A stretch of 63,978 nt of DNA, the filler included, from Dimargaris cristalligena (lineage: Eukaryota), in assembly GCA_003614675.1 (NCBI GenBank). It is 4 parts of 4 records of this genome, joined end to end, with 100 filler letters (N's around TTAATTAATTAA, not from the genome) between each part and the next. Parts side by side here need not be neighbours in the genome. Positions count along the whole stretch, not along the records: positions 1 to 16,424 come from ML002849.1; positions 16,525 to 32,943 come from ML002850.1; positions 33,044 to 49,462 come from ML002851.1; 1 more part is not named here. One strand, 5' to 3'. Positions 11,648 through 37,532 of this stretch are shown here, in pieces. A program made the position numbers and the translations under genes. Numbering within the stretch: position 1 is the first letter of the stretch; every line of letters begins with the position of its first letter. The notes below the pieces were generated by a model. It worked only from the letters and a program-made list of their open reading frames with translations. It was not told the origin of the DNA and did no database searches.

Positions 11648-12746
11648 TCGTTAGGAAGCTGTGCCTCACTTGTATCTTCTATACATACCAGGCATAACAA
11701 TGGATGCATTATATACCCAGGCCCAATGCAATATCGCCAATTGGCTTTATTGGAAACAATAGGGACTCGAGGATTAGTTGCACCAGCCACTAGATTGCTA
11801 TATAATGTCTTTAACAGATCTATCCATTAATGTCCTTGCCAAATTCGGCAATGCCTCATGCAATGTAGTTCCATCCGATAATGAAATACACTTGGGGGTG
11901 AAGATATCCGAATTGTTGGCTTTTGCTGTTCGTACACTCTCTACTATTCTGTAGGCCCGCTGTCTCACCCCCAATTTTTGAGTCCCCGATACATTTATTC
12001 TTAAGTTACCTACCCGAGAGAGAGAGAGAGGCCTCCTTGGTCGCCCCAATGCCCTTGCAGCAAAAGTATAGACCTAAAAGCAATGGACTTAAAGTCTCGT
12101 TTGCTACAGAAAGGGAGGTTGTACGCGGAAACCTACGATCATTAATAGTCAACTTTCCGGCGGGGGCCTAGATAGTAGCACAGAACAATGGGCGGGCTTC
12201 AATAACCGCCAACAGCTGGACACTGTGCCACTTGGCCTAGTGTGAAGCACAGAGAGTCTGCCACCTGGTCGGCATTTTCCCTCCGTCGCTTCACATATTT
12301 AGCATTGCCTTCCCTTTCCCTATGCTGCATCCAATGTAGCACTGTATATACAAGCTAACCTAGTGTACACCTGTCCTATAAGGAAGCAGCAGCATTGAAG
12401 TGCCTCATTTCAACCGGAGTGCCCTCCCATGAAGCCCTGCGAATACTGTGTTGGCTCATTTTCATAGGCTGAGAAGAGAGCCCGAATTGTTATTTCGAGT
12501 GGGGCAGCCCGCCAATGTTTAGGGACAACGAAAAAGAAACAGGCCGAATATAAGTAGGTGTGCTCGCAATTGAAAATTTTCCTTTGTAGATGCACTTGCC
12601 TAAAAGGTCAGTTGACTAAGATCCTTCGTCCAAACCAGCCACCATCGACCTTTCCCCACTATAACTTCGACTGTTTCATTAAATTAAGCCCAACTTTTAT
12701 CTATTGTCCCCTATTTGCTTCGGCATAAACCTTTAGGTCCCTAGAT

Positions 12747-14190
12747 ATGTTTTTACCTACCATTGTTTTCAAGCTTGGCTTGACTGCTGGACTTGCTTGC
12801 TTTATATCCGCTCGGCCTCTTCCTGGCGACACGTCCACTAGCACTTCGTCGGTTGGATTTGTCGAACAAAGTCATTTACGTGCACTTGATGTTATGGCTA
12901 GAAGCGGCCCTGATGAGCAAATATCGCGTGAACCCAATCTGCCAAGCTCGAGCTACTCAGACCCCGACCAGTCTTCATCCGGGTGCTGTAACGAACTGCC
13001 TATGGTCAGCGACTTTCCCTTCCCGGACAATACCCAGTGGGATATTGCCGATGACAACGACGAACTCGGACGCCTGGGAAGGGCACAGCTACTGGAACAG
13101 CAACTGCTTCGAAATGGCTCACTATCTTGAGGAGGATAATGGAGTCGACCCATCGAACGGCTCCGAGGCAGGGCCGACATACGGGTATCCAAATAACCTG
13201 GATGAGGGATCGAATATGGAAAATAGCGACCCCAACTTTGGATCAGATGATTATGATGAATCCTCTATACTCTCCTGTCTAGAAGAAACCGGTATGGAAT
13301 TCGCGGAGTACTGTGATTTAGATGACGGTGTCGATGAATCTTACCCCGCAAGTCTTGATAGCGAGACCGAGAACAAGTATACGGACATTACAGTCGAGTC
13401 ATCGGACATTGAGGCTAGTGAGACCTTATCGGACGGCGAAGGAACAAATAATTTCTTTGAAGCGTGGTTCTTCAAATATGGGGATTCTGATAAAGAGTCT
13501 GATAACCCAGCCGGCTCTGAATATATTTTGAGCGAGGAGGATTGCGATATGGACTCGGATAGTGCAGATATGGGTTACTCGGTCAATGTATCCGATGGTG
13601 AATTTGACCATCCCGCCAGTCCGGAATATATTTCGAGAGAGTATGGTAGCAATATAGATTCGGATTATGTGGAGAACGATCACCCAGCCAATGTCTCCGA
13701 TGTCGAGTACAGTGATACCAAGATATACATGGAAACAATGCCGGAAAAATCCCCAGGCATCGCTAACCAACTTGATGCAGACCTGATATGCGCAAAATGC
13801 AAAAGGGTATTTCAGTATTATCCAAATGCGTTGAAGCACAGGCAGGTCTGTGAGAGCATTGAGTGTCATCATTGTAACAAAAATTTCAACCGGTCAGATG
13901 CGCTCAACAGACACTTGAAAAGGGTTAACTGTACCAAAATTCGGATCTGTAATGTGTGTGGGATTGATTTATCGAAACCAGCCATTTTAGCCAGGCACGA
14001 GGCCATGGATTGTTCTCTTAACGCTTATCCGTGCCATGTGTGTAAAAAGAAATTTAGTGGGGCTGGAGTTTTACGCGCCCACAAGAGTAAGGTTAAAATG
14101 AATGCACCGTATTTGTGTAAGATCTGCCACAAGAATTTTCCAACCCACTGCCATTTAGTACTCCATTTGGAATCGTGCAAGAAGCCCTGA
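12747..14190 (+). CDS. Signal-peptide-bearing acidic zinc-finger protein (5 fingers, 4 of C2HC type), interrupted by an apparent +1 frameshift near 13055-13066; may be a pseudogene or an assembly error
   Basis: ORF 12747-13130 starts MFLPTIVFKLGLTAGLACFISA|RPLP (signal-peptide-like) and stays acidic to ...DIADDND. The +1 frame continues NSDAWEGH... through a D/E/S-rich region into fingers such as CHHCNKNFNRSDALNRHLKRVNC. Joined product is ~480 aa. Confidence 0.75.
13486..13716 (+). repeat. Intragenic 105-bp (35-aa) tandem duplication in the acidic region of the zinc-finger gene
   Basis: SDKESDNPAGSEYILSEEDCDMDSDSADMGYSVNV / SDGEFDHPASPEYISREYGSNIDSDYVENDHPANV / SDVEYSD; units start at 13486, 13591 and 13696. 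Confidence 0.8.
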
Positions 14191-15006
14191 CAAGGTTATG
14201 CTAGTCATTCAGACATTTAGCCACTAATGGTATGTTTACATGATTAAAATGGTAATAAACCTGGCTCTTAATGAGCAATGCCCAATCTAATTCGGCTATC
14301 GAGTGGACCCTCGTCGCAGGTGGGGCTTGGTCCGGTCATAAATTACAAAACGCACAATTGATGAGCTATTTTTTATAATTTTTAAATGGGGTTTACGCCT
14401 AATTAACTATTTATAAAATTTACCAGATATATTAAATATATTAGATCATCAAGGCACACTTAATGGGGTTAAATATTGAGTGAGTTCGGACCATCTGGGA
14501 TAAACCTACAACATACATACATATAGACCCAATATGCCTGTAGCAGTGTGGAATAGGGGACAGTGGGTATAGAGGGGCGTTATCGTTCAAAAAATAATTA
14601 CACTGGCTTATAAAACAGGTGTGGTCCAGCCACGGCCTATAATTAAGCGTAGCCATCAGGATGTCCTGTTCCATGAGTTGACCTTTGCCAATGCTAGTAA
14701 TTTTTACATTAAATTTTTCATACTGTATATTACCGCTGTAATGTCTTAATGGCACTAATATCCCACTTATAGCTACAACAACTAAGGAATGGTATCGCCT
14801 AACAACTAACTAAGATAGGTTAAAAATTGAATGGTGTTACTTTGGAAATGCGAGGTTCGCCAATATTCACAATCAATTTAGCTTAGGCTAATCCTCGGTC
14901 GTTTGGTTATATATTGGTGCTGTATTGCTTTCCTATGGACAGTATGCAAAAAAATAAAATAAGGGGTGCAAAATGATGAGAAACCATTATTGGTCATGAT
15001 TATAGT

Positions 15007-15548
15007 TAAGTAATGTGGTACACTGCAGGTCAAGTTGTGTTGTACTAATGAGCAGTTTAGGCCTTTTTGGCAAAGTTCTGCTTGGCTTAACCCTGAACAC
15101 ACTGAATCTCGTCCTGGATCTTGGCGGTCTAGTTGTCAGGCATGCTGTGGAATCCACTCTTGATGGCTGCGTACATTTGATGTGGTGCCCGAAACATTGG
15201 TCTTTGTCCTGCCCTGGGTTTACTCGGTCTGACACTGGGCCTGGTTGGTGACCCCACAGGCCTACACATTCTTGTTACCGGCCGCACTGCCCATGCCGTG
15301 CTGGACGCCACCAAGGCCTACATTTTATACACTAGGGGTTTGGTTGGGACTGGTCGATATGTTGTGTGGCAGTTAGGTGGTGTGTTGTTTGAGGGATGGG
15401 TGATGTGGGTGGTAGTAATAAGGTACAATGGGCGAAGTAGAATCGATGAGGTTGCCAGGGAAGTGAATGATGTTGATGAGCAGGTGGGCAATAATGGCAA
15501 GAGCAAGAAATGGCACTGCCACTAAGGGGCCAGGTGATACATTATCAT
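15007..15548 (-). pseudogene. Decayed Pro/Arg/Ser-rich ORF with multiple in-frame stops
   Basis: One frame from ATG 15548 links ORF-track pieces 15318-15506 and 15129-15314 and continues TAKIQDEIQCVQG*AKQNFAKKA*. No frameshift is needed, only stop codons. Confidence 0.45.
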
Positions 15549-16103
15549 GGTATAAATGGGATTCTAGTCATCACCAGAATTCACCAATATGAGGGACCAT
15601 TAGTATGGCAAACCTGGTTGGTGCTACTTTTGATCGGTTGTGGTCCTTAATATCCCTATTGAATGACGGGTTTTTGGAACATTAGCCAATGTGTCCTGTA
15701 ATCGCTAATGCCTAAATCTCCTCTAGCTATTGTTCTGTGACTGGTATGATTATTACCTAACTATTATCTAGTGAGAATATGCCACCGAAAGAGATATAGG
15801 AAACTGGAAAAGAAGATTTTAATCCCGCTGCTCCAATTCTCACTGTCATTATATACGCTGCTGCCGATGTAACATCTTATCGGCTTGATTGATTGACCTG
15901 CTAACCAGTATTATCAACAACCATATCACTTAAACATATGCTATCTAAGAAAATACAATAAAATTAATCCCCTGTACACCCTGTAGTCCCCTTCCCATAG
16001 GTATTACATTGGATTTTATGATAGAAATGGCAATATTGTGAAAACAACTCGTAGTGATACACCAGTACAATAGCAATCTCATCCCGAGATTGTAAAAATG
16101 AAT

Positions 16104-16108
16104 AAAAA
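16104..16108 (-). terminator. Pol III T-run terminator of the 5S gene
   Basis: TTTTT on the minus strand at the 5S 3' end. Confidence 0.75.
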
Positions 16109-16225
16109 GTTGTAGCATTGACTATTCCCAAGTGGTCACCCACCTCAGTACTAAATCAACTGATCGGGGCTTATCTTCGCAGATCTAACGGGATACGGAG
16201 CACATCCCGACATATGGCCACAACT
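16108..16225 (-). rRNA. 5S rRNA gene (dispersed copy, 118 nt)
   Basis: Reverse complement AGTTGTGGCCATATGTCGGGATGTGCTCCGTATCCCGTTAGATCTGCGAAGATAAGCCCCGATCAGTTGATTTAGTACTGAGGTGGGTGACCACTTGGGAATAGTCAATGCTACAACT. Helix I pairs (AGTTGTGGC/GCTACAACT) and the conserved TTAGTAC...GGGTGACC...GGGAA internal control region is present. Confidence 0.93.
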
Positions 16226-16424
16226 GAAATTGTTGTGGTAGGACCTGAGACCACTTAGTTAACCATAGTATTCCCTGATTAATCACATATATCCTTTTAT
16301 CAACGAAGTTCTGATTTATTATAGCCTTGCAATATCATAGCAAGTGAGAAATACATCAAATATCATTCGCATTTATATTTGATATCATCATTAGCCAGAT
16401 ATATTCGTAAACTCCTCATTATCT

Positions 16425-16524
16425 NNNNNNNNNNNNNNNNNNNNNNNNNNNNNNNNNNNNNNNNNNNNTTAATTAATTAANNNNNNNNNNNNNNNNNNNN
16501 NNNNNNNNNNNNNNNNNNNNNNNN
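16425..16524. other. Artificial contig spacer
   Basis: N44-TTAATTAATTAA-N44, with stops in all six frames; identical to the other two spacers. Confidence 0.97.
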
Positions 16525-16741
16525 TCCCTTTCCCTTTGCTTAGTCATCCAATCTTCTGGGACCTTCTCTCCCTTTCTCTATTATTCATCTATCTTTTCAT
16601 TTAGGCTTCCTCTTTCAAGTATAAATACTCCCCCTTGCTGCCACCTCTTGGAACAGCAAGTCTATCATCACCTTTCCCTTCTTAGCATCTAACTTTTCAA
16701 ATAAGGTTGAGTTTTCAAGGATTTGAGTTCAGTTCTTTACA
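16525..16741 (+). mobile_element. Possible 3' part of an LTR, truncated by the contig start
   Basis: CpG-free, pyrimidine-rich stretch with a TATAAATA box (~16620) ending in TTTACA at 16741. The other end is not visible. Confidence 0.3.
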
Positions 16742-17456
16742 CTAACTTTAACACCATGGATCTTTAATTATAACACACAATACCATAAGCTTCAATGTAA
16801 CCATCCTACTATGCTGGGACTTAATTTAACTCCAACCACACACCTCTGTATTCATTAGACATTGGCCTACTATATAGGCCACAAACATTACTGGGAAGTA
16901 TTTATATGGCTCTGAAGTGGGCTATGTAACCTGCTTAAATCAAAATGCACCTACATCATTTTAAGTACTTGTGCTATTCCCCAAAGTTATGTATTATAGT
17001 CCTGTTCACCATGTCCAGATATTATTTAAAATCTGGGATATTGTAACTTAGATGATTCATATATGAAAAATATCATTACCGGGACCGGTTTTCTGGGTAA
17101 AAGCCGAACCCATACTTTCTTGGGTTTCATCTATAGTGCCTTAAAGATGGATCGGACATCCCATTAATGACTACTGATCAGGTGGTTGATTTTTCAGGGG
17201 CTTTATTGCGGGTTGTTGGGACAGTAATGTCGATAGAATATCGAGGTTGTCTGTTGGCTGAAACCAGATGGGCTGGAAGCAATACAGGTCATCCCGAGAC
17301 AGTAAAAAAAATATCAGCTGAAGTAGTGAAAAAAAAGCTCACTCGATAATGGAAGATTTACTGTAAGGGGCTGACCGAAGATCAAAAAAAAAATAGCGGA
17401 AATGGACACGGTTGTCATTTGGGGATAAAAAGCTTTGGAAAGTCCCAATCGTTGTA

Positions 17457-18221
17457 TTAACGAGCCAGGCATACTGGTTGGGGCGATGGGGATCGGGACC
17501 CACTGCGCTGATGTGGAACGCGATAGGCCTGGCCCAACTGAATACAATACTCCGGTTTTCCGCTTTGACGACCCTGGAGAGCCATGAAAACTAAAGCGTC
17601 CCAATCGTCAAAGTCGCTCAGTGACGTACGGGCGGCTTTGGACTTGGGCTTGGTTTTAATCTTCGGAAGAGCAAGGAGAGCTGTTTTCGGGTGGGGTTTG
17701 GCCGGACCGTTCGGAGACGCTTTCGACCGAACTGGGGGTACTACAGGTGGCATTTTCAAGGTGTCTTTGACAGGGCGCGGTGTGGGTAGATACGACATTG
17801 GGGGGGTGGGGTTGCGATGTTCGTGGCGATGATGTGATTGATAAGTCTGACGCTGGCTAGAGTTCTTACATTTCGGACTAACCAAGTGGGACGGACGGGG
17901 GGCGGGTTTCGCTTTGGCGGGTATATTTTTAGTATGGGTTAGCGGACCGTCACGCAGAGGGACGGTGTAAATAGCAAGGTTCGTGGAAAAGCTCGGCGTT
18001 ACTCGGGGGGGAAGGGGGAGAGTCGTAAATAACAGCGGCGCGGAGAATTCGGCGCAGAGTGGCGTTATCGGTACCACGACGACGGTGGGGCTAAATTGGA
18101 CGGAGGGTCGGGCGGATCGCTGACGCTTGTGCGGGCGCAGTTCCAGACCAGCGACACATACCAGCTCGGGTCCCCGTCGGCGGCGCCCCGAGGTCACGTG
18201 GGATTCGACGATAGAAACCAT
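17457..18221 (-). CDS. Hypothetical basic Pro-rich protein, intronless, ~254 aa
   Basis: GC-rich open frame from ATG 18221 (MVSIVESH...) inside AT-richer flanks, with a TATA-like element at ~18390. Basic clusters RRRR and RPHKRQR. No family recognised. Confidence 0.55.
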   Translation of the reverse strand: MVSIVESHVTSGRRRRGPELVCVAGLELRPHKRQRSARPSVQFSPTVVVVPITPLCAEFSAPLLFTTLPLPPRVTPSFSTNLAIYTVPLRDGPLTHTKNIPAKAKPAPRPSHLVSPKCKNSSQRQTYQSHHRHEHRNPTPPMSYLPTPRPVKDTLKMPPVVPPVRSKASPNGPAKPHPKTALLALPKIKTKPKSKAARTSLSDFDDWDALVFMALQGRQSGKPEYCIQLGQAYRVPHQRSGSRSPSPQPVCLAR

Positions 18222-21200
18222 GATGAATGACAGCCAAAGGATAAATAAGGGGGGAGTTGATAAATGTATATATATATATATATGTACGTAATACAAGGTG
18301 GGCTATGGGATGATGGCAAAAGGGGCAAGATAAACTATAAATGGAAAGAAAACTCCGGAGAAAAATCGGGGATCTGAGGCCGTTGGATATATATAGATAA
18401 TCGAGTTGGGGAAGGAGGCGGAAATTGCCGGAAATCGATAGTGGTAGAGGGGTGCGCTTTATGTGCGGGACATGTAGGTGTAAAGGGTGGGGTTTGGCAG
18501 GATGGGAGGGAGGCAGTGGGAAAGTGATAGGGAATTCTATTCAGGAGACGTAGTTGTTTGCAGGAGTGGCTGACGCAGCACTGAGTGGAAATATACAAGA
18601 GGGGGTAGGTTTACAATGGATACGAAGCAAGTTTAAATAATATTTGACATTGGTGGAGGTAGGTGAGTGTGCAAGGGCTCAAATGGAAGGTGGCAATGCG
18701 ATGCGATTACAGTAGCAATTACAACGAGGTGCGTAACAGATATCAAATTATCGAACAGGTCGGGATTTTTTGTCGGGGGATATTATGTCAAATAATAGGG
18801 GTGAATGAAAGTGGATCAATACGGCATTAAATGGGGGCATTAAATAGGGGCGGTTTTTACAGACATTAAATGGGAGAGTTAGGAAAGTGGTTAGTTAAGA
18901 AGGTTCGTTAAATGGAAGGTTGGATAGTTAAGGATAATAACCGGGACTAAGAGACAAGAGAAACAACGATTAGAAAGGTCTGGTATTAACAATAATTAAA
19001 ACCATCGACATAAAAGTGGGAGACTACTGTTAGGCTTCATAAAGCCGCTGCTTTGAGGAAAAACCTCCTGGAGGGTTAGTCCTTGGGCCTGGTATTTATA
19101 CCATAACACACCTGGTCAGTAATCCATGTACTCTCCGTACGTTGTTCACTCTCCCCCATCCAACACTGGCAATCTGCCAGTGCTGATAAAGCTTAGAGCG
19201 CGTCGGCTCGACTGTTTGTCGGCACCCTTACCCAAACCAGTCCAGAATGACCCTGGTGAATGAATCGACATCATACTGTCCAAGGGGTGTATATCTATGA
19301 AGGGGGGTGGGTGACTATGTCGTATCTACTGGAGAGTGGCCCTGGGAGTGTGTGTCCTGATCCGTCGGTTTAACTACCGCCATAAAGGCCCAGATGGAAA
19401 TCAGCCGAATAGAATGTGTTAGTGTGAGTAGGCTGGCTGAACCCACACGGAATCATATGGAGGCAAAGGGGCCAAGGTGGTATTCATACTGGGGGGGTAG
19501 GGTGATCAGTTGGAGGTAGACGGAACCAGTGCTGCCCTGGGGATGATCACTGCATTCCCTTAAAACACCCTAGCCCAGTAGTGAGGCGGAGGGGAAGGAA
19601 CAGTGTTCAAACGACTTTCCTTCTCACCCACACCCGTACCCGCACACCCCCGATATACACACCCACCCACCCATTTATATATATCCATCCACGCCGACAC
19701 TGGCATCCACCCGTATTCCCCCTCCTCCATCCTTCATCTTCACACTAGGGCAGAATAAAAGGAGAGAACGTAAATGAAGGATGTGATAAATTGGGATTAG
19801 TATTGCGGTGAGTAGTTTTAGAGAGTGCGGGCTTCCCAATAGAATACCAACGAAGGTGAATAATGCCCTAACCTAACCGCCTCGATAGCTAATCAGTCCA
19901 GGCCGTGGGACTGCTATGTAAAGGCGCCGATGCCTAATCACTCCGGGACCCCTTAACTGCGTTTTTCCCATTAGAGGACTGTACTAGCTGCTCTCCTAGG
20001 GCACCTTCCATTCATCCGTTCTAGTGCCTTAATGCTAGGTCAACATTAGGTGAGCGCGGCAGTATTCACTCGCCCATCTGGCGCTATGACTGCTCATGGC
20101 CACGATTACAGCTGATCCGGCCATATCAAGTATTGCCCAAACCAGCTGCAATTTTAACTCAGACAAGAAGAAAAACAACAATAAAACAGCATTATAATGC
20201 CAAGGAGTAGTTACGTGTGAATGTTGGGATGCGGCGCCATAGGCATGAAGCTCTAATCTCTACCCCTTGCCAATATGAAACACTCCTTTAAGCAGAGGCG
20301 GATTTGGATACACAAGCACATACTATGAACGTGAAGAATAGACATGCTTGCCAGACTTGGGTATGTTTAGGTTGGTGTAAACCGCCATCCACACCTTCAT
20401 CTTTGCGTATCAGTACCTCTTTCAATGTACATGGTTTTAATACATCCGCACGAAACATTCGGGTGAATTCCGCCCGACATTTCTATTCATCCTCACGAAT
20501 ATGTACCAAAATTTACCCAACACAAATCCTACTCGACGCGCCCTATAATTATCAAAATATATTCATAGAGGCCATTCCCAAAGCTAGCCATCATTGGACT
20601 GAGCACCACCTCACCAACCCATAATAGTACCCTGAGCGGCAATATTCGTTAGCATTTGACATCACAAGCAACTGTTGGCCGAGGCTGTCTCCTTCACATT
20701 CACTCATAAGCAGGACTGTGTTCAGTTTGGTTGTGGCCCTTGGATTATCCTAGTGTGTTGGATATCCCCACTAACCTAAACACCAGAACATATTGACATC
20801 CCGTTGGTGGTATTTATTTATTTACTGTTTACAATTACCGACCCAAGAGGCGGTGAGTGTGCAATGGCCTAAATGCCAAATAGCGTATAGTAAACCACTT
20901 TCCCTTAAAGGCGCAACTAATAATAGTATATTGGTGCACTAAAAAATGGGATCGACCATGATTGATCGGACCCATGGTAATGTAGTTCATATTCCTCGCA
21001 CCTCACTGATATTCGACGTATTCCACATTACTTGGGTACGAAGAGTGAATGCTATACGAACAAACAGCCAGTATCAGAACCGATAATCACGACGCGTCCT
21101 CAAAGCTGCGGTATAACCAATCACACTAGTACTACCAGTCTAAAGGTACGATGTTTCTTATTGTATGACGCTTGAGGCTGGATCCGCTGAGCTGGTTTAA

Positions 21201-22673
21201 AGGATGCAGCGCCCAGGGGGGGTGATTCTAGCTGATAGGCAGCTGCTGATAGTGGGTAATTCAATGATCGATGTAACCTCCGAATACCCACTTGCCGGAG
21301 CAACCGAATATGCCATACTCGGGTTACATGGGTTGTAATGCCGTTCAGCGGTCAATAACTTGCCCTTGCTAGTGGGTGAGTGCCCCCACGTGGGTATACT
21401 TTTATTAGTATTTAAAAATGCAAACGTGACAGGGTTAAGCAGCTCTATAGATAAATAAATGCTATATTATGTTTAAATCCGGCCGAATCGTAGGAAGGTG
21501 AGGGAGGGGGTAATCAACAAGACGAGTTGGGACGGTCGCGATGGGAAAAACGTATTCGGGGGTTTGGTATCCGTATTTCAATGACGACCGGCTAATCGGC
21601 CCACCTATTTCGCCAGCTCATCAGCAGATGGACGTTCCGGGTAGATAAAGTACAGGAACAGGTAATAATTAGTTTGGATGCTCTAATCGGGCTGCCTATC
21701 ACCAAAATAGTACTAGTATGCAGTGTCAGTTCATTTACCAACGTATAGAATTGGGGAAGGGGGGTGGCTATTTTAGGCTGGAGATGATATTCATTGTTCT
21801 CTCACACCAGTATCCACCACCCCGCCGTGTCACCCGTTCCCCGGAGCAAGGTTAAAATGCGTAGGGGGTCTAGATCGGCCGTAGTCCGGCCGGTTTGCTG
21901 CACTACAGTTGGGGGGTTCCACCAGTTTTAGGTTATTTTGACCCCCCCCGCACACACTTAACCATACCCCAATACTCGCACAGACACCCATTTTTACCCC
22001 CACTATCTTAAAATCGAATTGTATAAATTTAGCCGACATATCACCCGAAGTCTTGAATTAGTCAACAGATCCGTACCCAGTCGACCGAATCAACTGGTGC
22101 GAGCATATTTATGTAATATTGTTTATCGCTAACCCTGTTACATATAAAACACCATGATATTTACCGGTTAGTGTCAAATATTAGGCAAAAACGGAAACCG
22201 GATTATTATATGGGGCGGACCAACCGCCGGGGGATATAACACGCAAGCAATATAGCTACATTCTGGTACCACTCGGGCGAAGGCAACCATTTGGAGGATG
22301 GGTGGGTGTTAGTGCAGCGTGATTTTTTAAACCTTCTACTGAAGGAGTTGGCATCTGGCTGACTACCTCTTAGGGCTTGGGGGCATTTTCACCGATCAAA
22401 TGTTTTTAGCATCATTAAAAAAATAATATGACAGGGTAGAAAATGACCCTGCCAACACGAATCCTAACATCTAGCCAATCCACTCTTCGTTTAAATACCA
22501 ATCAATTGGAGATGTTGTCACTTGTTCAACAGAGCAAATGAGTTATGGCATCAACTATTGCCAAGTAGTCTTCCGTCTTCGTACTAAATTAACTGGTGTA
22601 TACTTAATTTCGCAGATCCAACGGAATACGTTGCTTGGATGCACAGTTGGCCATATTTATATATTATCCATTG

Positions 22674-22817
22674 ATATGATAGAAGTTCAACTGAGCTGTG
22701 TAACAAATAATCCGCTGGATAGGGAAAATGCTACTGATTGAAAATAAATATCCCGTCTATTTTCACATACATATAGAAAATAACATCTTATACCGCTGGG
22801 TCGCATTTAACCTATAT
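22674..22817. mobile_element. MITE family copy 2 (diverged)
   Basis: ATATGATAGAAGTTCAACTGAGCTGTGTAAC...GCTACTGATTGAAAATAAATATCCC...TTATACCGCTGGG; colinear with the copy at 32818. Confidence 0.7.
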
Positions 22818-25804: not shown

Positions 25805-28800
25805 ATGGCGGACTATACGGACATCCTCTTTAAACTGGGGCTGGTTCTCTTCGTCGGCCTCCTGTACGTGGCGTATAAAATTGGAATAGCGGTGGTGCCC
25901 CACCCAGCCCTTCGATCCATCCCACATGTCCCAGTTCTCGAGTCCCTGAAATCATTGCTTAAAGGGGAAAGCCACTCCGAATTTTACCGGAAATATCTTC
26001 AAGCCGAGCTACGTCGACATGGCATCGTGCGGGTAAGTTTAGATAAAATCCACGTGTACCCGCAGCTACACCTCCCTCCTCCACATACTATGCACTTCCC
26101 TCACTGGGTATTGCCGCGGTCCTAAAATATAAGGGGGGCGGTTTAAGGGGTGGGGGGGGGAGGTGGTGTGAATATAGTGAATAGGAGTTGTGAGGTCATT
26201 TCCCCGTCCGGTATTACCCTACCTTCAGTACTTTAGCACTAGACGTCCCTGCCTCATTCCCTGGAAATCCCACATTGATCCGGGGTGCTGGAGGGAGTCG
26301 AGGTCATCTGAAGCGGTGGGACGGATGCTTCGAACGAACGCCCCCATCACCCTCTCCATCATCTAACACTGCTTGTTCGCCACCCATCCCCTTGCGTTAA
26401 CCATTTAATATTCGGGCATAAATGATACTCATTAGGTTTTTTTTACAGGCCAATGGCTCGTATATATCAATAACCCCACTTACGTAAAGCAGTACTTCTA
26501 TAATATAGGTAGGCTCTTTTTCTAAACCAAATCTGATATTTACTCAAGACTGGTCAAACTTGAATAGCGGGCCTTGCCAGAAACAGTAGCCCTGGCTGCA
26601 TCCTGGTGTACCAACTTTCACAATGCTACCGCTTTATCCTTTCTATTCTATTATATTTTCTATAATGTAGAAATATTCGATCGGCCCGACCCCAATTCGC
26701 TGCTCACCGGGTCTCCTCTCCGATATTTCTTCGGGGACGGCATTCTAGCTGCACATGGTGAGGTAAGAGGGGTGTTATATTTAGAGCGCTATATTCACCG
26801 GTCACCATCATTATGCCATGTTAAGTAGTGAGTTGGTGATGCTGTGAGGTTGGACCCACTGGACGAGTAGCCCATCTGGCCCCAAAGGAGGCCAAGCATC
26901 GACATGCTATTAGTCACTTCAACACCGTCTAAAGGGCGTATCTTTTAACCGGAATCCCACGAAGGTTTGTGAAAACCTTCCCCGAAAAACTTGTACTCGG
27001 TCTCTTTACTAATGTATTGTCCATCTTTCTTGCTCATCAATGGTTATAACTCCCATGGACTGGGGGTTCTACCATCCACTGTAGAACTGGAAGCGGCAAA
27101 GGCGGCTTACTGCACCTGCCTTCCGGCGGAGTTTTTCGACGTCGGTGGTAACAAAATGTGTGCGCCGGCTACTCAATGTAATTGACCTAAAGGACGGCCA
27201 ACCCGTGGATATCGTTTTTCTTTTAAAAAAGTAAGTAGATGGCCCCCCCATCGCATTAGTAATCCTTGTTGGTGGTATTATGTTCTTACAAAGCTTGCCA
27301 AAGATATTGTGGTATTAGGGTATATATTACCACAACCCCTGCGTTTAAGTGTTCTAACCAATTCGCATTGTCTGATTACCTAAAAAACAGGATGACCTTG
27401 GATGTTCTAGGGTTTGAGATCTTCGGGGTCGACTTTCATGTAAGTTTCGGTTACTCGAGGCATCATCGCTACCGATCATGTACATTTTCTAATCGCAATT
27501 GCGCACATTGGAGGTGCCAGTATTCCTCAAGGCACTACATACAATTGGTTTCCTTTATGACTTTATTTGTATATTAATCTTTTTCAAATTCATTTACTTG
27601 AATGCTATTAAATTGGTGTAGGTTACCTCAGACAAACCCAGTGCCTTTTACAATCTCTACAGCGAGATAATCAGCGAAGTGCTGAATCCCCTGTACTTGG
27701 TGTTACCCATTGTAAACCGTCTGCCTTGGCCGGCTCGTTTGCGCTCGCTGAGAAAGATTGCCGAATTTGAAGCCCTTTTGGCCGACACGATCGTCACAAA
27801 GAGCCGGGAAATGAGCCAAGACGCCGACGGCGGTGCCCACGTTATGCATTCTATTGATATTATTACATCGCTGACCAAAGGCCTTGGGGAAGGGGCTGAA
27901 TCTCTATCCACCAAAGAAATCAGGGTAAGAATCCGTGTTTCGCACCCCCATCCTGTCGATAACCGGTAATAGCCGACAGCACTATACGTGAATTAAAATT
28001 CACACAACTCACTTAATCTCACCCTTGATACACGATGTATATCCACCTTAATTACAGGACGGGGTCAACAATCTACTATTTGCGGGTCATGACACAACCG
28101 CCAATGCCTTATCATTCCTTCTATGCCATATGGCCATTTACAAGGTAACCTACCTTGAAGTACCTCGGTATTTTTCCGTATGATGAAGTTTTCTATAATC
28201 TTTCAAGCACCTGTCCCTAATTAGTCACTAATTTTGAACTTCGAACTTCGAACTTCGACTATTCCCATTTTTCATTAACCCGCGGTGTAGGACATCCAAG
28301 TGAAAGCCCGGAATGAGGTCCTCCGCGCCATCGATGCCATGCCGGATACCGCTGACCCTTGGGCTGCCTTTGGTGACGACCAACTCGCTGCCCTTCCCTA
28401 CTGTTTCAACGTTATTCGAGAATCAATGCGCCACGAGCCTGTCATCTCCTGTCTTACCAATCGCAAACTTCGCGGGGCCTACCAGTACGGGGATTACGTT
28501 CTGCCTCCTGGTACCAAAGTGGGCGTTCATATATATGATTTACAGCACAGTCCTGACTACTGGGGTGGGAGCTCCGTAGGGGGATACGATAGGGGAAACG
28601 ATACCGGCGATAGGGAATGCGACCTTGACGCCTTTAGGCCTGAGCGATTTGAAGCCGGCCCTCGGCGTGGGAAACCGGACGGAGTGGTCGCTTGGATTCC
28701 ATTTGCCATGGGCAGCCACCAATGTAAGTAGTCAAAGCTTTCCTTCGCTAAAATGGGCATGAGTGGGCCTTAGCGGCAAGTGATTGCAGATTCTTTGTGT

Positions 28801-29103
28801 ACCATTGCATTGCTAACTTCCGACCCAAATATGTCATGCTTCACTCGACTATAGTGTAAAATAACGCACTAATTACAAATTACCGGTGGTTTGTGGATAT
28901 ACATATTTATATATGCTACGATAGGTGTCGGGATGCAGTTTGCCCTACGTGAAATCCGAACGGCCTTCGCCATGCTTCTCTATCACTACGAATGGCACTT
29001 GCCCAAACACTCCATACATCACAACGGTCTGAAAACTCGATTAGCACCCGTCACCTCAGCCAAGAATCTACAACTATGCTTCATCCGTCGCACCATTATC
29101 TGA
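25805..29103 (+). CDS. Cytochrome P450, 9 exons, ~529 aa
   Basis: Exons 25805-26032, 26436-26508, 26671-26762, 27085-27230, 27391-27439, 27622-27924, 28058-28144, 28291-28723 and 28925-29103. N-terminal TM anchor, WKRQRR, I-helix FAGHDTT, ExxR (ESMR), FRPERF and heme motif FAMGSHQCVG. Confidence 0.95.
28236..28257 (+). repeat. (GAACTTC)x3 short tandem repeat in a P450 intron
   Basis: gaacttcgaacttcgaacttcg read directly. Confidence 0.8.
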
Positions 29104-31980
29104 AACGGGAACCCTTGTTAAGGGTTATATATTCTTATGGCCCTAACTTGGCTGATGCTGTAATATATATATTTTTTATCGAAATAACTAATATGGACGC
29201 AATTGTAAAGATTTGTAATGGGGGCTATATTGAATGGTTATACTGTTAGCATGATCGGAGAAGAGTCACAAAAAAACAGTTGTATGGATTTGCTTTAATA
29301 ATGATTCATATTGAACGCGTAGGAAAACTGGAACTATGTTAGGATGATCATTCAGTTACGGATAGAACAGACGAACTCAATGAATTGGTTCTTCGACTCG
29401 AAAATATTTTTTAGATGACAGGTGTAGTTACAAGTACAACCGAGGGTCTAATTCAGACAAAGCGGGTAGTGATTCGGCGAAGATACTAATGGAATGCCAG
29501 CCTTATAGGTAAATACTGGGTCTTTGTTAAATGACATGACTATCGTTTTCAATCATTAATAGGGATCAATTGACTCAAAATACAAATGTCCAGCACACGG
29601 GAGAAGTATGGTATAGCTGCATTAAACACCAATATAACAAGTCCACCCAAGTAGTATGCCTTAATAGTTAACCACCCAGGTGTCGCGCTTGAAGTCCGAT
29701 GAATAGGAACCTACTAGACTAAATATGTCCGTCAACCGATATGTCTTGGCAATTTGCGGAGGAGGTGAATATAATTAATGAGGGAAGCGCCTAAGCGCGA
29801 CGGGCCAACTAGGGGTGATAGTTTAATATGGCCACTGAATAAACAATGGCTATGATTTGTCGGGTCCAAGGGTAATTCTCTAAATAAGACGGTACTATTA
29901 TTTTTAAACGGTGCAACCCGTCATTTTTCGCCAGGTTTAGCAGTAAATACATTATATGCAACTATAAAAATGACACTTAACATAACTCCTAGTTCATAAA
30001 TATCCGAAAGCAAGAGTCGAATAGTGGCGGGGTTTTGTTCGATCCTGCTGGACGGTACCACACTTCCATATCACTGATCGATTGCATACCGGTAACGACA
30101 GGTCCTAGCAGCCCGGTGTAATTATAGATATATGCCATTGAGTTAGGTTAGCGACGGTCTTGGCCAGGAGTCCAGACTCTTAATGGAACCATTAGACGTT
30201 CGGGAAGTCGGTAGAATTCTGGATTTTGAACCCGGAAAAATGCAAAACAAATAGGGCACTATACCATTTAGTAGCACGAGTATGATTTATTAAATGAAAA
30301 AGAGGTGAGATAGTATGTAATTCTAATAGGATGTATTTCTCTATAAACAAAAAAAGATAGTCAATTAGCCTACTAGAACGCTAAGTGATGAGAAAGAAAG
30401 CAATAGCTGAGTTGTCATTATAAATTGCACGTTCCACTTAAATACAAACGTGAGCTAATCCATTGAAAAAGGTTTATCATTTCTGGGTCTAATTACCTAG
30501 AGGGACCCGTCAGCTCTTGAAGGGTGGAGTGGAAGTCCCCCAGGTTGTATTGATGGCATTGTTGATGTTACTTCTTCCACAGCAACCGAGCACAGCCCCA
30601 CAATTGCGAACGAGGCATCCCCTCCAACTGAGACTAGTACGACCGAACATCAAGATAACCAGGGTCCCGACCATGCACCGACCCTGGTCATGAACGATGG
30701 ATAAAATCCCTCCCATTGTCAACGATTGCCGCGGCCCAGCTCACCTTACCATTGCTACGAGACAATCTGGCCCCAATCCCATCTCGGCCCTTCTAGGAGC
30801 TTCTCTAGGTCTCTACCCATAATAGGGCAAACCATATGGCTATCAGGCATTAACCGCCGCTTGTAGTAGAATCAGAACCGACAACATATAAAGGTCACAA
30901 TGCATCTTACGTTGGAAGTTCTTCAGTTTACTAGCGCTCCTATCGCTATTACTTTCCTTAACATCTATACATCTCGCTTAAAGCATTCCTAATTAATAAA
31001 GGTCGCTCATATTCACTCGCTCATTCAACATTGACATTGGCCAGTTTCACAATCCGAACTGAGGTTTTGATCGGAAATTGTTCTTCCTGACAGGACCATT
31101 AGTAATGGTAGATCTGCAGTCGAATATGACTTAATAGGGGCGCACGAAGCAAATTCACCTCAACAGCACAAAAAAAATGAACTAAGGGTTACCTAATTTG
31201 AAGCAAAACTATGCCAATGCACAGCTGGGGGACCAAATCGACTTCCTTTTTCGACTAGATGAATTGAAGGCAGCCACGTAAAGGAAATAGACTGGCATCA
31301 TGGAATAGGGCAATATGCGGTTGGGTATTTCTAAAGATAGGCCTGCCAATACCGAAAATCCTAGGAGTGACCAGAGAGTGAATATTAAACACCACTAGGC
31401 TCCATTAATTTGTTATTTTGCCGTATTACGTAAGCACAAATATGGCGGCTCTTCCTGGCTCTTAATTATTCCGAGCTTCAAAACATTGGCAGCAGTGCCT
31501 TCAGACAAAATAGGATGTCCGTCGGATGCAACCAACCGACCTTAAGCATCTCAATTCCCGCCATCCCGCAATAGACTTTAAGCGAGGCCAATCCTTGAAA
31601 ATTAATCCATGAATCAACCATTGGTCAGCCCAGTAGATATATCGGGAGGGGATCGACCTAATAATGGTGAGATACCTTTAGCAAGAGTGTAACTTGATCC
31701 TCCTCATAACTATTTCCTATTCGTGTTAGAAGGGGTAAAATACAATTCCGCTGCATGGGATTATGCCTATAGCTAGCCCCCGGATAGGTCGGATATTTGA
31801 GTATAACCCGCAATGCCCGTTTGACCAGGTTGTTAGTTACGGAGTTCGATTGAACCCATCACGTATATAACCAAACACCAATCCCTCTTATCGTTCTGCC
31901 TATTCTCCCCATCTTCCTCAACTCACTATCCTCCCCATACACAACTCGCTCTATCGGACGTTCCACCCCCCACCGCAGCC

Positions 31981-32160
31981 ATGAACACTTCGAGACTCGT
32001 AATGCTAGCGGCTGTTCTCGCACTCATCGTCACTCCGCTTGCATACTCCAAGCCAACCAATGAGTCGCCCAACTCGCCTCCCTCTGCTCAAATCTACCAT
32101 CGGTCTGAGAAACCAAAATTAAACGGGGGTGGGAAGCTTTTGATTTTCAGATTTAAGTAG
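31981..32160 (+). CDS. Small secreted peptide precursor, 59 aa (below the ORF-track cutoff)
   Basis: MNTSRLVMLAAVLALIVTPLAYS|KPTNESPNSPPSAQIYHRSEKPKLNGGGKLLIFRFK*. Strong start context GCAGCCATG, TATATAA at ~31864 and a CT-rich leader. Confidence 0.7.
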   Translation: MNTSRLVMLAAVLALIVTPLAYSKPTNESPNSPPSAQIYHRSEKPKLNGGGKLLIFRFK

Positions 32161-32817
32161 CACCACTAACCCTAACCTCTACAACTACCTTGTGACTGTA
32201 TAGTCATATTCACGTTACACGTCTCTGCTGTATTGCCGATATAGTTACACGTATCTTATGATACCTGTGGGGATGTCTGTGTTTGAGCATATTACCATGT
32301 TCCCGTTTCACTATGGGTATTCACCACGCGCCTACAAAGATTCCCTTAGTTGCTTAATTATTTTGACTGCTCAAAACCCATTGCCTATATAATGGATGTT
32401 ATATTCGACCCGTTTGATAATGATTGTTACCTTGAAATTACCCCGTAATTTCCTAGCCATCTCTGGCATTTCTGTTTTTATGGTGCTTCCCAACCCCTTT
32501 GCCAAGCAGCTGTCTGTTAATCTACAAGGTGTAGTATTCATGTGACCCATATCGCCACTAAATGCCAATCTTCTAGGCCCAGCTCTAAAGCCTTACTACC
32601 CCGTCTAATGCGGTTTCTCTTGTTGATTGCCGTTCATGACTGACACTCTCGCCTCTACAGCTAAACTTGTTGATCTTAGCAATAACAGCCCCACTTACCA
32701 TCACTCCTACTCTTTACTCAATAAATAATGTAATGTTAAACTTCTAGCCCTACTTACCTATGCCTTTGAGGCCCTGTTCTGCATACAGCGGCAGACAACC
32801 TGAGAGTTCAGGAATAC

Positions 32818-32943
32818 ATATTGGAGTAGTTCAACCAGGCTGTATGACGAAAAATCCATTTGATGAGGCAAGTACTACTGGTTGAAAATAAACATCCCAC
32901 CGATTTTCCCATACGCATAACAGTTAAAGCCTTATCAACCAAG
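32818..32943. mobile_element. MITE family copy 3, truncated by the contig end
   Basis: ATATTGGAGTAGTTCAACCAGGCTGTATGACGAAAAATCCATTTGATGAGGCAAGTA... is a near-identical reverse complement of 33044-33100. Confidence 0.85.
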
Positions 32944-33043
32944 NNNNNNNNNNNNNNNNNNNNNNNNNNNNNNNNNNNNNNNNNNNNTTAATTAATTAAN
33001 NNNNNNNNNNNNNNNNNNNNNNNNNNNNNNNNNNNNNNNNNNN
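32944..33043. other. Artificial contig spacer
   Basis: N44-TTAATTAATTAA-N44. Confidence 0.97.
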
Positions 33044-33100
33044 TACTTGCCTCATCAAATGGATTTTTCGTTATACAGCCTTGTTGAACTACTCCCATAT
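33044..33100. mobile_element. MITE family copy 4, terminal fragment at the contig start
   Basis: TACTTGCCTCATCAAATGGATTTTTCGTTATACAGCCTTGTTGAACTACTCCCATAT matches the right end of the 55937-56080 copy. Confidence 0.85.
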
Positions 33101-35376
33101 TCTGCGATGTAATCATGTCCGACGGGTTACGGACTCCGAGTGATTAGTAATGGACCTGCTCCTTGCCACCAACCCCACTCTTCTCTAAAACCCCCTTATT
33201 TCCCTGATATGTATGGATCAGGGTTTGAGAATATACTATTTCTGTGTTTTATTATAAGCTGTACCCAGCTCCCCATCAAATCTCCTTTTCATGTGTTATG
33301 TCCTCTCAATTATTTCGTATACAACCATTCCAATTTGTTTGTTGTAATTGTCCTCTTAATCCATTTCCCTGCGTCGCTCATTGGCATTTCTATGCGTACT
33401 TTCATCCCTTTCCTGGTCCTTATACTATCTTAAATTATTTTCCTTTGCAATAATTAATTGGTCTTTCCGTCCCATTTCTCCCCATTTAACCCATGGGTAG
33501 GGGTCAAAATATAAGTATATAGGGGTCACAGTTTAATATTATATAGCGTTGCGGCAGGACGCTATTATGATTCCGGAAAATTTATCCATCCTCATCAAAA
33601 ATCCCAGGCATATAGCTGTAGTCCCGGCCTTGTATTAAATATTTGTCTAAAAAAATATTAAAGAGCAAGCATCACTAAATCTAGTCCCCAAACTAATTGG
33701 GGCGATTACATGCATTTGAAAATAGGGCATTCATGTGGTCCCTATGGAAACCCTTCTGGCCGGTTGCAATCAGATTTTTCTCTTATTGGACTCGATGCTT
33801 GCCGTTCCTTTGTACTGATTTCGATCTATTTACCTTGGTTATCAGTCCTAGATTGTTTTACTAGAATATGGTTAGGTAAACAGATTCGCGGTCTTGAATA
33901 AATCGTTGCTGTGACAAATTATTTTTATTCCATTAATCAATTAGTATTCAAGAAGGCTCCACGACCACAATAGCCGGGTTAGTGTCTATTCAATTATAGG
34001 CACTCCTTACTAAACCATACAGTCTGACTCTTCCTTGAAAAGCCGTTCTGTTCCCTGTCTTGTGTTTCCCACCACTTTGGCAGTTCATTGAACTTCTCCT
34101 GGGTACTGGGGCATATGCTAATGAGCATTACTTTACTATAGTGTTCATCCCCTGGTCAAAGCCGAAGCCTGAAGGGTTCTATATCAACTGCCCCGGCTGG
34201 CACTTGAAGGCTATTTCCGCCGACCTTTACCCTTAGTAGGTGAGCCGTGCGGATTCAAGTACAGTTGTCCTGATTACCAATGGATATTTTCTGGTATCCG
34301 CCACCTTGATTCCTATACAATACCCTCTTGGTGGTATCTGTTCATAATACTACTCTCCTGGGTCATATTCCCAGCTATTTTTGTTAATGGGGAGTTGTCA
34401 CTCAATGCAATAGGCCTTCTCTATGTACACAACCCCCCGGGCTAATACCCCACCCATGGGTCCCCCCTGTTGACAGATATATCCCCCTTTCTCCCCCACC
34501 TGCCTTGCTATTAATTTGTCCTGGTTGTTGTTATTACTCGGCCTCGTAAACTTTTAGCCAATGGACTCAAGTGCGGTACTCAAGTGATGAGCCCCTTAAG
34601 TAATCTCCAGCCCACGCACTTAGAACTAACCCGTGGAACCCTACTTGACTGGGCGTGGATGTTGGTGTCAATACACCCAAAGTTTGCCTTCATATATGTA
34701 CGTTTTAGCTAACCCCCCCTCCCAGTTTAATCCTGCCTTCACCATTCCTGGTACTCCCATACAGAGGTGTATCTTGTTTGTTCGTGCAGATCGTGTTCCA
34801 ATAAAGGAACATTTCGATTTCCCATTATAATACCTGTTTATCGTAACATTTACAATGGCTGATGATACCGACTCAGAAGTTATATGAATCCAATACCAGT
34901 TACCTAAAGGCGGACTTAACCATGCTTCAATGAAAACAACATAGACCAGTCTGGCTAGTCTCTTAACCATAGCGACAACATTCGGCTTCTTTACAGTCTC
35001 ACAATAACCAACGAAGTTGAAGATGGACGACTCCAGCAGTAAAGGAATACATTTAAGTCCAACCCCAGAAAACTCTATAATTGGCAGCGACCTTTAATTA
35101 AGATGGGATATTGGCAAGTAAGGACGGCATGTCCTAAATAACTTTAAATGTGATTGCTATTTCTTTATTGTGATTTTTTGTTGGGAAATCTATATTGGAA
35201 ACACCTATGTAATATGGTATTAATAGATCGCATGTGTTTGAGTGTGTGTAAGAACAAATATTGGGATTAAAAATTTAAAAAAAGTTCCTTTGATAAGTCC
35301 ACTTAATGGGGTAAAATATAAGACCAAATTTGAGACTGGAGAAGTGCGCAACTAACTATCGGTCAATTTCAAGGGA

Positions 35377-36687
35377 TTAGGACTTCTCCTTGGAGTGTCT
35401 CTCTTTAATATGCCTATAACGAGCACTCATGGCGGTGTACGTCTTATAACAATGCTGGCATTTGAATGTCTTCTCCCGAGTGTGTATATTCCGATGAACG
35501 GCTACTTCGCTGGGGAACATAAACGGTACATTGCAAATATCGCAAGCATATTTCTTTTTCTCTTTGGGGTGGGATCTTCTAGCATGTGCACGGAGAAGCG
35601 ACCGTTTCGGAGTCACAAAGTCACAAATATCACAGTCATAAAGATGTTCCCCGCCCGGTGTTGCCAAATCGCCATTTGGAGGACTACAGTTGGGCAGCGC
35701 AATCTTCTTAACCACCCCGGACTGAGTCTTCTCTTTGGGATGGATTTTCAAATGGTCGCTGAGCTTAATCCAGGTGTCGAATGGGGTTTGGCACTGGTCG
35801 CAAATATAACGCAGTTCCCCGGGGTGTGCTTTGTCAAGATGCTTGTTGCGGCCGTCACGCCTACTGTATGCCGATTCACAATAAACACATTGGTAAAGCT
35901 TAACATTGGTGTGTGATCTCAAATGAACTATAAGCTGACTGGACCTCGAATACAATTCCCCACAGATGTTACAGACATGCGACTTGGTTCCGCAGATTGA
36001 GAGTAAATGATTTTGCAGATTCTTTTTGTTCTTGTATGGGCGCTTACAGTGATTACAGATATAAGGCTGCTTCAGCTTGGGTAGTTTCGACTGCTTGTCC
36101 CGAGGAGCGGGCACTATGGGGTCAGAAAGGCTGGTAAGACGGCTCTCGAGGTCACATCCGGTGATTTTCTTTGTGGGCTGCTGGGGTGGGATGTCTTCAA
36201 ATGCCCCTAGGCCTGCAGCGGTGGAATCGCACTCTAAATCGGCTAGATCGTCAAGCAAACTTCGGTCAAGGTCAGTGCTGACCCAATAACCGTCATTGAA
36301 TGGCGCATCATATACGATACTCTGAGTATTGGGAAGTGATCCAGAGTACTCGTCTATTCTGTCTAGGCTGTAGGCTGGAAGAGGGTTGTTTAGTTCCTGG
36401 TGCCCTAAAGCACTACTGCCACCCACCGACGGTTCGAACTGATTGTTGAATGGCAGTACACTACTGATGGAAGAATGTCCTAAATCATTGTAGTAATCAT
36501 ATAGTAGGGGGTCGATTGGGTGGGGTCTACGGTCCGCATTTGTGGCCAGTTCATCGAAACTATAATGGTAACTATGGGTATAGAAAATTGCATGTTCTGG
36601 ATTGACTTCATGTGAGTTTGGTTCAGTGGCCCTGACTACAGTGAGTAAGCCCAGCCAGAGCAGACCAGCTGCCTTGCAGACTCGTAT
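35377..36687 (-). CDS. Signal-peptide-bearing 7-finger C2H2 zinc-finger protein, ~436 aa, with ATA at the expected start position
   Basis: The ORF-track frame (GTG 36426) stays open 87 more codons upstream to ATA 36687: (I/M)RVCKAAGLLWLGLLTVVRA|TEPNSHE.... An acidic stretch DLDRSLLDDLADLECD precedes 7 fingers with TGEKP-like linkers (TNVKLY, TREKTF). The first in-frame ATG lies inside finger 6. Confidence 0.8.
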   Translation of the reverse strand: MRVCKAAGLLWLGLLTVVRATEPNSHEVNPEHAIFYTHSYHYSFDELATNADRRPHPIDPLLYDYYNDLGHSSISSVLPFNNQFEPSVGGSSALGHQELNNPLPAYSLDRIDEYSGSLPNTQSIVYDAPFNDGYWVSTDLDRSLLDDLADLECDSTAAGLGAFEDIPPQQPTKKITGCDLESRLTSLSDPIVPAPRDKQSKLPKLKQPYICNHCKRPYKNKKNLQNHLLSICGTKSHVCNICGELYSRSSQLIVHLRSHTNVKLYQCVYCESAYSRRDGRNKHLDKAHPGELRYICDQCQTPFDTWIKLSDHLKIHPKEKTQSGVVKKIALPNCSPPNGDLATPGGEHLYDCDICDFVTPKRSLLRAHARRSHPKEKKKYACDICNVPFMFPSEVAVHRNIHTREKTFKCQHCYKTYTAMSARYRHIKERHSKEKS

Positions 36688-37532
36688 TCTTAGACGGCGG
36701 CTTCAGGGAGGTGCTTGAAAATTAGGTGTAAATTAATGTCAGCAAAGACAAAGTAAAGCGAACCTCACCGGCGGATAATATCAAGTAGTGGCGGTACAAT
36801 AATGTAGTAGTCGATAACCTGTTGTTCAAAAAGAAGCCACACATAAATAGTGGGGTAAACGCGATTAATTACACGAGGAGGCAAATTAGAGGGTATATAT
36901 TGTTGGCAAAGAATGGGACTGGATCTGCCCAGATGTTTATATGCCGTTGGCTTAAAACCATGGGCCTGGTCGGTGGTCTCGTTGGGTAGGGGATACTTCC
37001 ATGTATGACAGTGACACATTCTGTACCAATTACCAATCTTCTGAGAGTGTTTGTTTATCGTACAAAGCATTGCAGGTTGGAAGGCTTTAGTTATATAACG
37101 GGTCAGGGAAATCTTACTTCTAGTCGTGACCCATTAAGAAATTCAGTCAAATTGCACTCTTTCAATCGTAGCACAGGATAAAATACGCCCCTTGTTGAAG
37201 TGAACGTGTTTATGGTGCCAACATGGGGTCTGGTGTTAAGATTTGGGCCCCCTCATGGTTGGATTCTGGCTGGATTTATGTTGTAGCCACCGTTTTGTAG
37301 ACGGTCATTCTAACATACCATAAGGTGCTTACATATCGACGCCCCTATCATGTAAGCTATCCAGTATTGCTTGTGTGGATATTTTTATTACGCCTGATAA
37401 GGCTGGAATACTGCCTACAGTGCTACTCGGTTGTAATGCATCAGTCAAGTTTTAATATTTCGAACTTAACCAGCGATATATGTAGTAGTAAGGACAGTGG
37501 TGAGGATAGCAGATTGTGGTTGGTGCAGCTAG

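Follow-up and report, generated by a model that had tools for sequence, protein, structure and literature searches.

Do two loci in the genome of the fungus Dimargaris cristalligena encode zinc-finger proteins that are secreted and act as transcription factors in the nuclei of a host? The loci lie in a window, the whole stretch of DNA analysed here, of 63,978 nucleotides (nt), filler included, from assembly GCA_003614675.1. Four pieces, each about 16.4 kb long, make up the window, with linkers N44-TTAATTAATTAA-N44 at positions 16425-16524, 32944-33043 and 49463-49562. Piece 1 contains locus 1 and piece 3 contains locus 2, so the loci are on separate contigs, as the original prediction stated. 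D. cristalligena belongs to the Dimargaritales of the Kickxellomycota, and the accessible part of PMC9866270 describes the Dimargaritales as haustorial parasites of other fungi. The original prediction described each locus as a continuous intronless coding region, in which a signal-peptide-like N-terminus (hereafter the leader) precedes an acidic region and a C-terminal array of C2H2 or C2HC fingers, and proposed that the products are exported transcription-factor mimics. As the DNA stands, neither locus encodes an AUG-started protein containing both the leader and the fingers. With moderate confidence, we take both loci to be copies of fast-evolving, lineage-specific genes that bear a leader and are candidates for secretion, the copies having been disabled or re-arranged recently.

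Locus 1 and its paralogs

Locus 1 is located on the plus strand. The leader begins an open reading frame (ORF) of 127 codons and a TGA stop in frame 0 (12747..13130, stop codon 13128-13130). The leader itself is 22 residues long (12747..12812) and ends with ISA ahead of RP. The fingers are encoded in frame 1, which is open from stop to stop at 12784-14190 (stop codon 14188-14190), so the leader and the fingers do not form the single coding region proposed originally. From the ATG at 13051, the start used by the public gene model P0006, the finger frame contains an ORF of 379 codons and a TGA (13051..14190). The acidic region (13075..13788) belongs to the finger frame, contains the motif FFEAWFF, and has a net charge of -57, with aspartate and glutamate accounting for 26.5% of its residues. 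Codon usage changes in the same way as the frame: up to 13064 frame 0 scores best (0.117 versus -0.079 and -0.534), and past 13064 frame 1 does (0.408 versus -0.945 and -0.204). The numbers of stop-free codons, 468 at locus 1 and 441 at locus 2, exceed those expected by chance.

The finger array of locus 1 (13789..14178) is composed of four complete C2HC fingers and one incomplete one. The complete fingers have the pattern C-x2-C-x12-H-x3-5-C and are positioned at 13789-13851, 13864-13932, 13948-14013 and 14116-14178. The remaining finger, which starts at 14032, is without the fourth zinc ligand, and the predicted count of five is therefore correct only if it is included. The array scores 42.8 bits against the Pfam family zf-C2H2 (PF00096), for which the gathering cut-off is 25.2 bits. 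A phmmer search of the PDB matched it to tandem C2H2 DNA-binding arrays, with an E value of 1.5e-15 for ZNF568.

The 127-residue leader ORF was searched by HMMER against 1.84 billion representative proteins. It matched three proteins from two annotations of D. cristalligena, each aligned to query residues 1-106 only, and no protein from any other species. With their cluster mates, the three proteins stand for two more loci, both annotated in each of two assemblies: RKP39866.1/KAJ1993894.1 (P0001/P0002) and RKP40189.1/KAJ1983063.1 (P0005/P0003), all of them hypothetical proteins. Residues 1-106 of the leader ORF are homologous to these paralogs, and residues 107-127 form an out-of-frame tail. 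Among the three paralogous loci, 23-24 of residues 1-28 are identical (82-86%), compared with 43-55 of the 78 residues from 29 to 106 (55-71%). The leader is thus the best-conserved part of the family, and this is the best evidence that it matters. Judged by this conservation, the leader of locus 1 is a genuine conserved protein N-terminus. The leader family is probably restricted to D. cristalligena, and its acidic region is probably disordered. The ESM Atlas model of P0005 has a mean predicted local distance difference test (pLDDT) value of 0.32, and an Atlas search with P0005 gave no usable feature match and structural template-modelling scores all below 0.3.

In P0001 and P0005 the leader continues through D-D-E, eight residues and W-E-G into the acidic region without a break. 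This acidic region is collinear with the one in the finger frame of locus 1. When the paralogs are aligned to the window by tblastn, they follow frame 3 at 12747-13064, and then frame 1 from 13060 or 13072 to 13770. At the frame-change site (13065..13074, plus strand), 10 nt separate the DDE codons of frame 0 from the WEG codons of frame 1; both paralogs have eight codons (24 nt) there. No ORF at locus 1 runs uninterrupted from the leader through the acidic region, because the frame changes here. By its shared leader and collinear acidic region, locus 1 is nevertheless a member of the paralog family. The homology ends at 13770, just ahead of the first finger. Since the leader and the acidic region are unbroken in the paralogs, they were once continuous in locus 1 as well. 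As the acidic region of the window also runs into the fingers, the ancestral gene at locus 1 can fairly be reconstructed as leader, acidic region and fingers. The architecture proposed in the original prediction is retained in this ancestral sense, although neither locus encodes it intact now.

The frame change is not an assembly slip, because contigs of three runs, X1, X3 and X5, from two studies, contain the same DNA over the frame-change site with no indel; X1 and X3 may derive from the source sample. The sequence of run X5 differs from the window by seven single letters, none of which creates a stop. The leader frame contains one synonymous change, and the finger frame contains two synonymous and two non-synonymous ones. 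An intron that would restore the frame was also considered. There are 84 open-frame GT-AG combinations, none with a GTAAG or GTGAG donor. The intron is ruled out on this ground, and also because the collinear alignment with the paralogs leaves only about 10 nt unaccounted for. A generic scan for intron patterns gave 100 matches, mostly due to chance; the clear introns in this DNA combine GTAAGT or GTGAGT donors with a CTAAC branch.

Two public annotations call a gene at locus 1, whose product is named hypothetical protein, Dimargaris cristalligena, at source. Both models, P0004 and P0006, omit the leader and start within the finger frame, at 13051 (P0006) or 13114. Both assume an intron at 13807..13990 (plus strand), which removes fingers 1-3 and changes the frame. 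After 13990 they read 13991-14092, the region of fingers 3-4, in another frame, and their product has no Pfam domain. The stretches affected are 13807-13990 and 14087 onward. We judge these models to be wrong, because the frame without this splice encodes five fingers with correct spacing; the intron is probably a mis-annotation that conceals a finger gene. The paralog models, of 202-323 residues, lack Pfam domains as well. A Pfam finger is present in 0 of the 4 annotated models of the family, so the intact finger-bearing paralogs expected of the proposed effector family are not among them. These models stop just where the fingers of the window begin. Since the fingers are mis-spliced in the models of the window, the paralog loci may likewise contain fingers that the models miss. 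The two annotations of one paralog (paralog B) have different C-terminal tails after the same residue, which suggests predicted splices and not a real stop.

Six ATGs are located between 12747 and 13114. A ribosome starting from the ATG at 12747 would produce a 127-residue fragment of leader and acidic sequence with an out-of-frame end. Only an internal ATG would give the fingers, which would then lack the leader. Upstream of the leader, the original prediction placed an intron at 12607..12736 (plus strand), read by eye, with the donor GTCAGT. No CTRAY branch was seen by eye near its 3' end. A short ORF from the ATG at 12590 (12590-12746, plus strand) lies ahead of the leader. With the putative intron removed, this ATG would be in frame with the ATG at 12747, as calculated by hand (17 + 10 = 27 nt), and such a joined start would put nine residues, two of them basic, before the leader of locus 1.

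Locus 2 and its missing start codon

Locus 2 is located on the minus strand. Its frame is open for 441 codons and a stop (35377..36702), and it is closed on the 5' side by an in-frame TGA (36703..36705), five codons upstream of an ATA codon. This ATA (36687-36685) is the first codon of the signal-peptide-like stretch of 20 residues (36628..36687), which consists of a basic stretch and 13 hydrophobic residues followed by V-R-A, and ends ahead of TE. The only in-frame ATGs encode residues 395 (35520, inside finger 6) and 425 (35430). The coding region that the original prediction started at this leader therefore has no AUG start, and ordinary scanning cannot make the leader protein of locus 2, because it has no AUG.

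The N-terminal region that follows the leader (36091..36627) is mildly acidic and contains the motif SLLDDLADL. Residues 27-205 include 16% aspartate and glutamate and have a net charge of -20. The finger array (35395..36057) is composed of seven complete fingers, one C2HC and six C2H2, which is the number predicted originally. The array scores 84.2 bits against the same Pfam family, and phmmer matched it to ZNF568 in the PDB with an E value of 5e-32, and likewise to the PRDM9, CTCF and Aart arrays. In the AlphaFold2 prediction of the whole ORF, calculated without an alignment, the mean pLDDT is 34.5, and only a helix formed by residues 2-24 is confident, with a pLDDT of about 80.

Residues 1-205 of locus 2 had no database match among 7569 candidates. 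The whole ORF matched only four generic animal C2H2 proteins with 24-27% identity, among 8000 scored. Since no protein of the window was among the database matches, no public model of 242-772 residues covers the ORF of locus 2. The database searches with both loci returned no fungal relatives outside D. cristalligena.

The putative intron upstream of locus 2 (36714..36768, minus strand) has a good consensus, with the donor GTGAGG, the branch CTGAC and the acceptor CAAG. The first AG past the CTGAC branch is at 36715-36714; with this acceptor the TGA at 36705-36703 stays in frame, and the first ATG beyond the intron is out of frame and opens only 43 codons. Joins of the ORF to an upstream exon were evaluated in 69 combinations, of which only those with the donor at 36768 and the second or third AG are plausible.

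Nature and origin of the two loci

The two loci do not form one family, as had been proposed, because they are alike only in the fingers. BLASTP aligned them there with 28% identity over 104 residues (E = 9e-9); outside the fingers the best E value was 2.4. Locus 2 is not a member of the leader family of locus 1. Several features named in the original prediction are present, namely the hydrophobic leaders of both loci, the acidic regions, and the motifs FFEAWFF and SLLDDLADL. Its basic patches are weak: neither locus contains a stretch with at least five lysine or arginine residues within seven.

In both leaders, an n-region that is basic or short precedes an uncharged hydrophobic core, and the residues at positions -1 and -3 are small. 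Considering these features, the leaders are likely but unproven signal peptides. Two home-made rules for signal peptides were applied. The crude rule is passed by both leaders, but also by 17 of 109 arbitrary ORFs of the window. The strict rule is passed by locus 2, by P0001, by 1 of the 109 window ORFs and, among 3102 ORFs of shuffled sequence, by 18; the subtilase control, the leader of locus 1 and P0005 do not pass it. Neither rule was used as evidence.

We propose that at each locus a secretory-type leader has been cut off from its finger array, by a frameshift at locus 1 and by the absence of an AUG at locus 2. The DNA and the alignments directly show the reading frames, the lack of a start codon, the paralogy and the patterns of the fingers; the loss of function is what we infer. 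Several observations weigh against such a loss. The finger frames are fully open over 379 and 441 codons, and their codon usage is still coding-like. Any disabling must therefore be recent, unless the ORFs retain some use. Contigs of two studies share the frameshift, which is thus not brand new. The differences in X5 are too few to show constraint or decay, and they give no clear sign of either. The non-haploid state suggested for D. cristalligena in the accessible part of PMC9866270 leaves room for an intact second allele, which may exist. Finally, the gene called at locus 1 by two annotations starts at positions from which the finger frame could be read.

It is unlikely, in our estimation, that the loci encode ordinary nuclear zinc-finger transcription factors. 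Locus 1 would then be translated from the internal ATG at 13051 or 13114, as the starts of P0004 and P0006 would have it, with the leader ORF a relic or an upstream ORF. Locus 2 would gain an exon that starts at the ATG at 37070 or 37019 and is spliced from the donor at 36768 (GTGAGG) to the acceptor AG at 36702-36701, making the hydrophobic stretch internal. Transcription factors usually have this layout, with an acidic region ahead of a C-terminal C2H2 array. The strong donor at 36768 allows in-frame joins with introns of 68 or 80 nt, and the upstream ORF at 37070-36769 scores higher in codon usage than the two alternative frames (0.05 versus -0.26 and -0.33). However, this ORF has no homolog or domain in the tests made and contains TATA-like sites, the first AG after CTGAC keeps the TGA in frame, and no public protein of 242-772 residues fits. 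At locus 1 the six ATGs from 12747 to 13114 mean that a scanning ribosome would rarely reach the starts of the finger frame if the message begins upstream. We find it very improbable that the members of the leader family are secreted, acidic and disordered and play no part in DNA binding, and that locus 1 acquired its fingers later, by fusing with a finger gene next to it; the frameshift would then be the mark of a failed or reverted fusion. Such an origin is consistent with the paralog models that have no Pfam domain, with the low confidence of the Atlas model of P0005, and with the end of the homology just before finger 1; the differing tails of paralog B argue against it, as they suggest predicted splices.

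That the loci encode working mimics of transcription factors, exported at the haustorial interface into the nuclei of Mucorales hosts and binding DNA there, we regard as improbable. Locus 2 would have to be translated from AUA, a near-cognate codon with a purine at -3, and locus 1 would depend on an intact allele in a non-haploid genome or on intact paralogs that bear fingers. The strong conservation of the leader, the signal-peptide-like build of both leaders, the predicted N-terminal helix of locus 2, and the matches of both arrays to DNA-binding arrays such as ZNF568 in the PDB speak for working mimics. Fingers may also be hidden in the paralog loci by mis-splicing, as they are in the models of the window. 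The MoHTR1-3 proteins discussed below provide a precedent as far as their accessible descriptions go, and D. cristalligena is a haustorial mycoparasite according to the accessible part of PMC9866270. Against working mimics stand the lack of an intact AUG-started ORF with leader and fingers at either locus and the absence of Pfam fingers from the four annotated family models. The leader family has no relatives beyond the species, the N-terminus of locus 2 has none at all, and the crude signal-peptide rule is also passed by arbitrary ORFs. Cysteine-rich zinc sites are, moreover, not obviously suited to the secretory pathway, if our reasoning is right. We also speculate, with little expectation that it is so, that D. 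cristalligena possesses a species-specific, fast-turnover set of acidic proteins led by signal peptides and ending in C2HC or C2H2 finger arrays, of which both loci would be recently disabled or non-AUG-started members. Its intact paralogs, with fingers that gene models may have overlooked, would be exported to the host fungus and act in its nuclei.

Related systems and the rest of the window

The finger arrays share the spacing and ligand pattern of the tandem C2H2 arrays of ZNF568, PRDM9, CTCF and Aart. Proteins of the ZNF568 type, however, are nuclear and have no hydrophobic leader, the fingers of locus 1 are C2HC, and the identity to the best database proteins is generic at 24-27%. The D. 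cristalligena paralogs have the same leader as locus 1 and a collinear acidic region, but their ORFs are unbroken and, as annotated, contain no fingers. The transcription activator-like (TAL) effectors of Xanthomonas are exported proteins that bind host DNA, contain an acidic activation domain, and are delivered by type III secretion. The likeness to them, drawn in the original prediction, is conceptual only, since export there is by a bacterial type III system and not by a eukaryotic signal peptide. Tandem TAL repeats of 33-35 residues with repeat-variable di-residues were not found, as Pfam gave only zinc-finger families for both ORFs.

The combination of a signal peptide with a C2H2 finger is already known in fungi, although the original prediction named no described fungal family of this architecture. 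MoHTR1 and MoHTR2 of Magnaporthe oryzae came from a screen for proteins with a signal for secretion as well as a DNA-binding domain, which gave 20 candidates, half of them C2H2 proteins, and both were shown to reach rice nuclei, according to the accessible part of PMC7672089. MoHTR3 contains a signal peptide, a nuclear localization signal and a C-terminal C2H2 domain, as stated in the accessible part of PMC10189765. The abstract of a 2026 preprint mentions an effector family with a zinc-finger fold in M. oryzae. In these accounts, MoHTR1-3 resemble the two loci in combining an N-terminal signal peptide, in the loci a likely one, with a C2H2 finger in a parasitic fungus, in being lineage-restricted, and in the proposed reprogramming of host transcription. 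The MoHTRs are, however, described as small, intact proteins with a single C2H2 finger domain and a nuclear localization signal, which are expressed in infection and reach rice nuclei. The two loci, compared here by architecture, differ from them in having five or seven fingers, long acidic regions and broken ORFs, and in belonging to a mycoparasite of the Kickxellomycota. Neither locus has the signal peptide and the finger in one AUG-started ORF, as the MoHTRs do. The loci are thus a further, here defective, instance of a known combination. Among the matches listed, the literature on D. cristalligena and on mycoparasites contained no such secreted finger protein, with supplements outside the search, and the term 'zinc finger' occurs 0 times in the accessible part of PMC9866270.

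If intact, exported leader-plus-finger paralogs exist, secreted nuclear effectors with zinc fingers would be known not only from plant pathogens but also from an early-diverging mycoparasite, and would offer a handle on how one fungus reprograms another. They would be the first transcription-factor-like effectors in the parasitism of fungus on fungus, and a variant of the single-finger MoHTR type with many fingers and an activation domain. The present value of the analysis lies in the annotation: at locus 1 both public annotations leave out the leader and lose the fingers through splicing, and for locus 2 there is no public protein in the size range searched, 242-772 residues. A small leader-bearing family limited to D. 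cristalligena is now defined and merits attention in studies of the secretome.

The search for repeats around both loci found no inverted repeats and one pair of direct repeats, at chance level, and no sign of a mobile element was seen. The remaining long ORFs of the window are ordinary eukaryotic genes. They encode RRP12, a Misato-like protein with a tubulin fold, a MutL-like protein, a YTH protein, COX15, a short-chain dehydrogenase, and a subtilase with a PA domain. The subtilase (43099-45699, minus strand) is 861 residues long, has a hydrophobic N-terminus, and lies at a distance of 6.4 kb from locus 2. The accessible part of PMC9866270 reports high numbers of subtilases for the Dimargaritales. 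The GC content around both loci (12001-18000 and 32001-38000) is lower, at 0.39-0.47, with a third-position value (GC3) of about 0.5, than that of the housekeeping ORFs of the window, which have a GC content of 0.53-0.59 and GC3 of up to 0.71. Two short ATG-started ORFs, at 62890 (plus strand, 76 codons) and 56950 (plus strand, 61 codons), have signal-peptide-like N-termini, and the former is the sole window ORF of the 109 that passes the strict home-made rule. They may represent small secreted proteins, first exons or chance ORFs.

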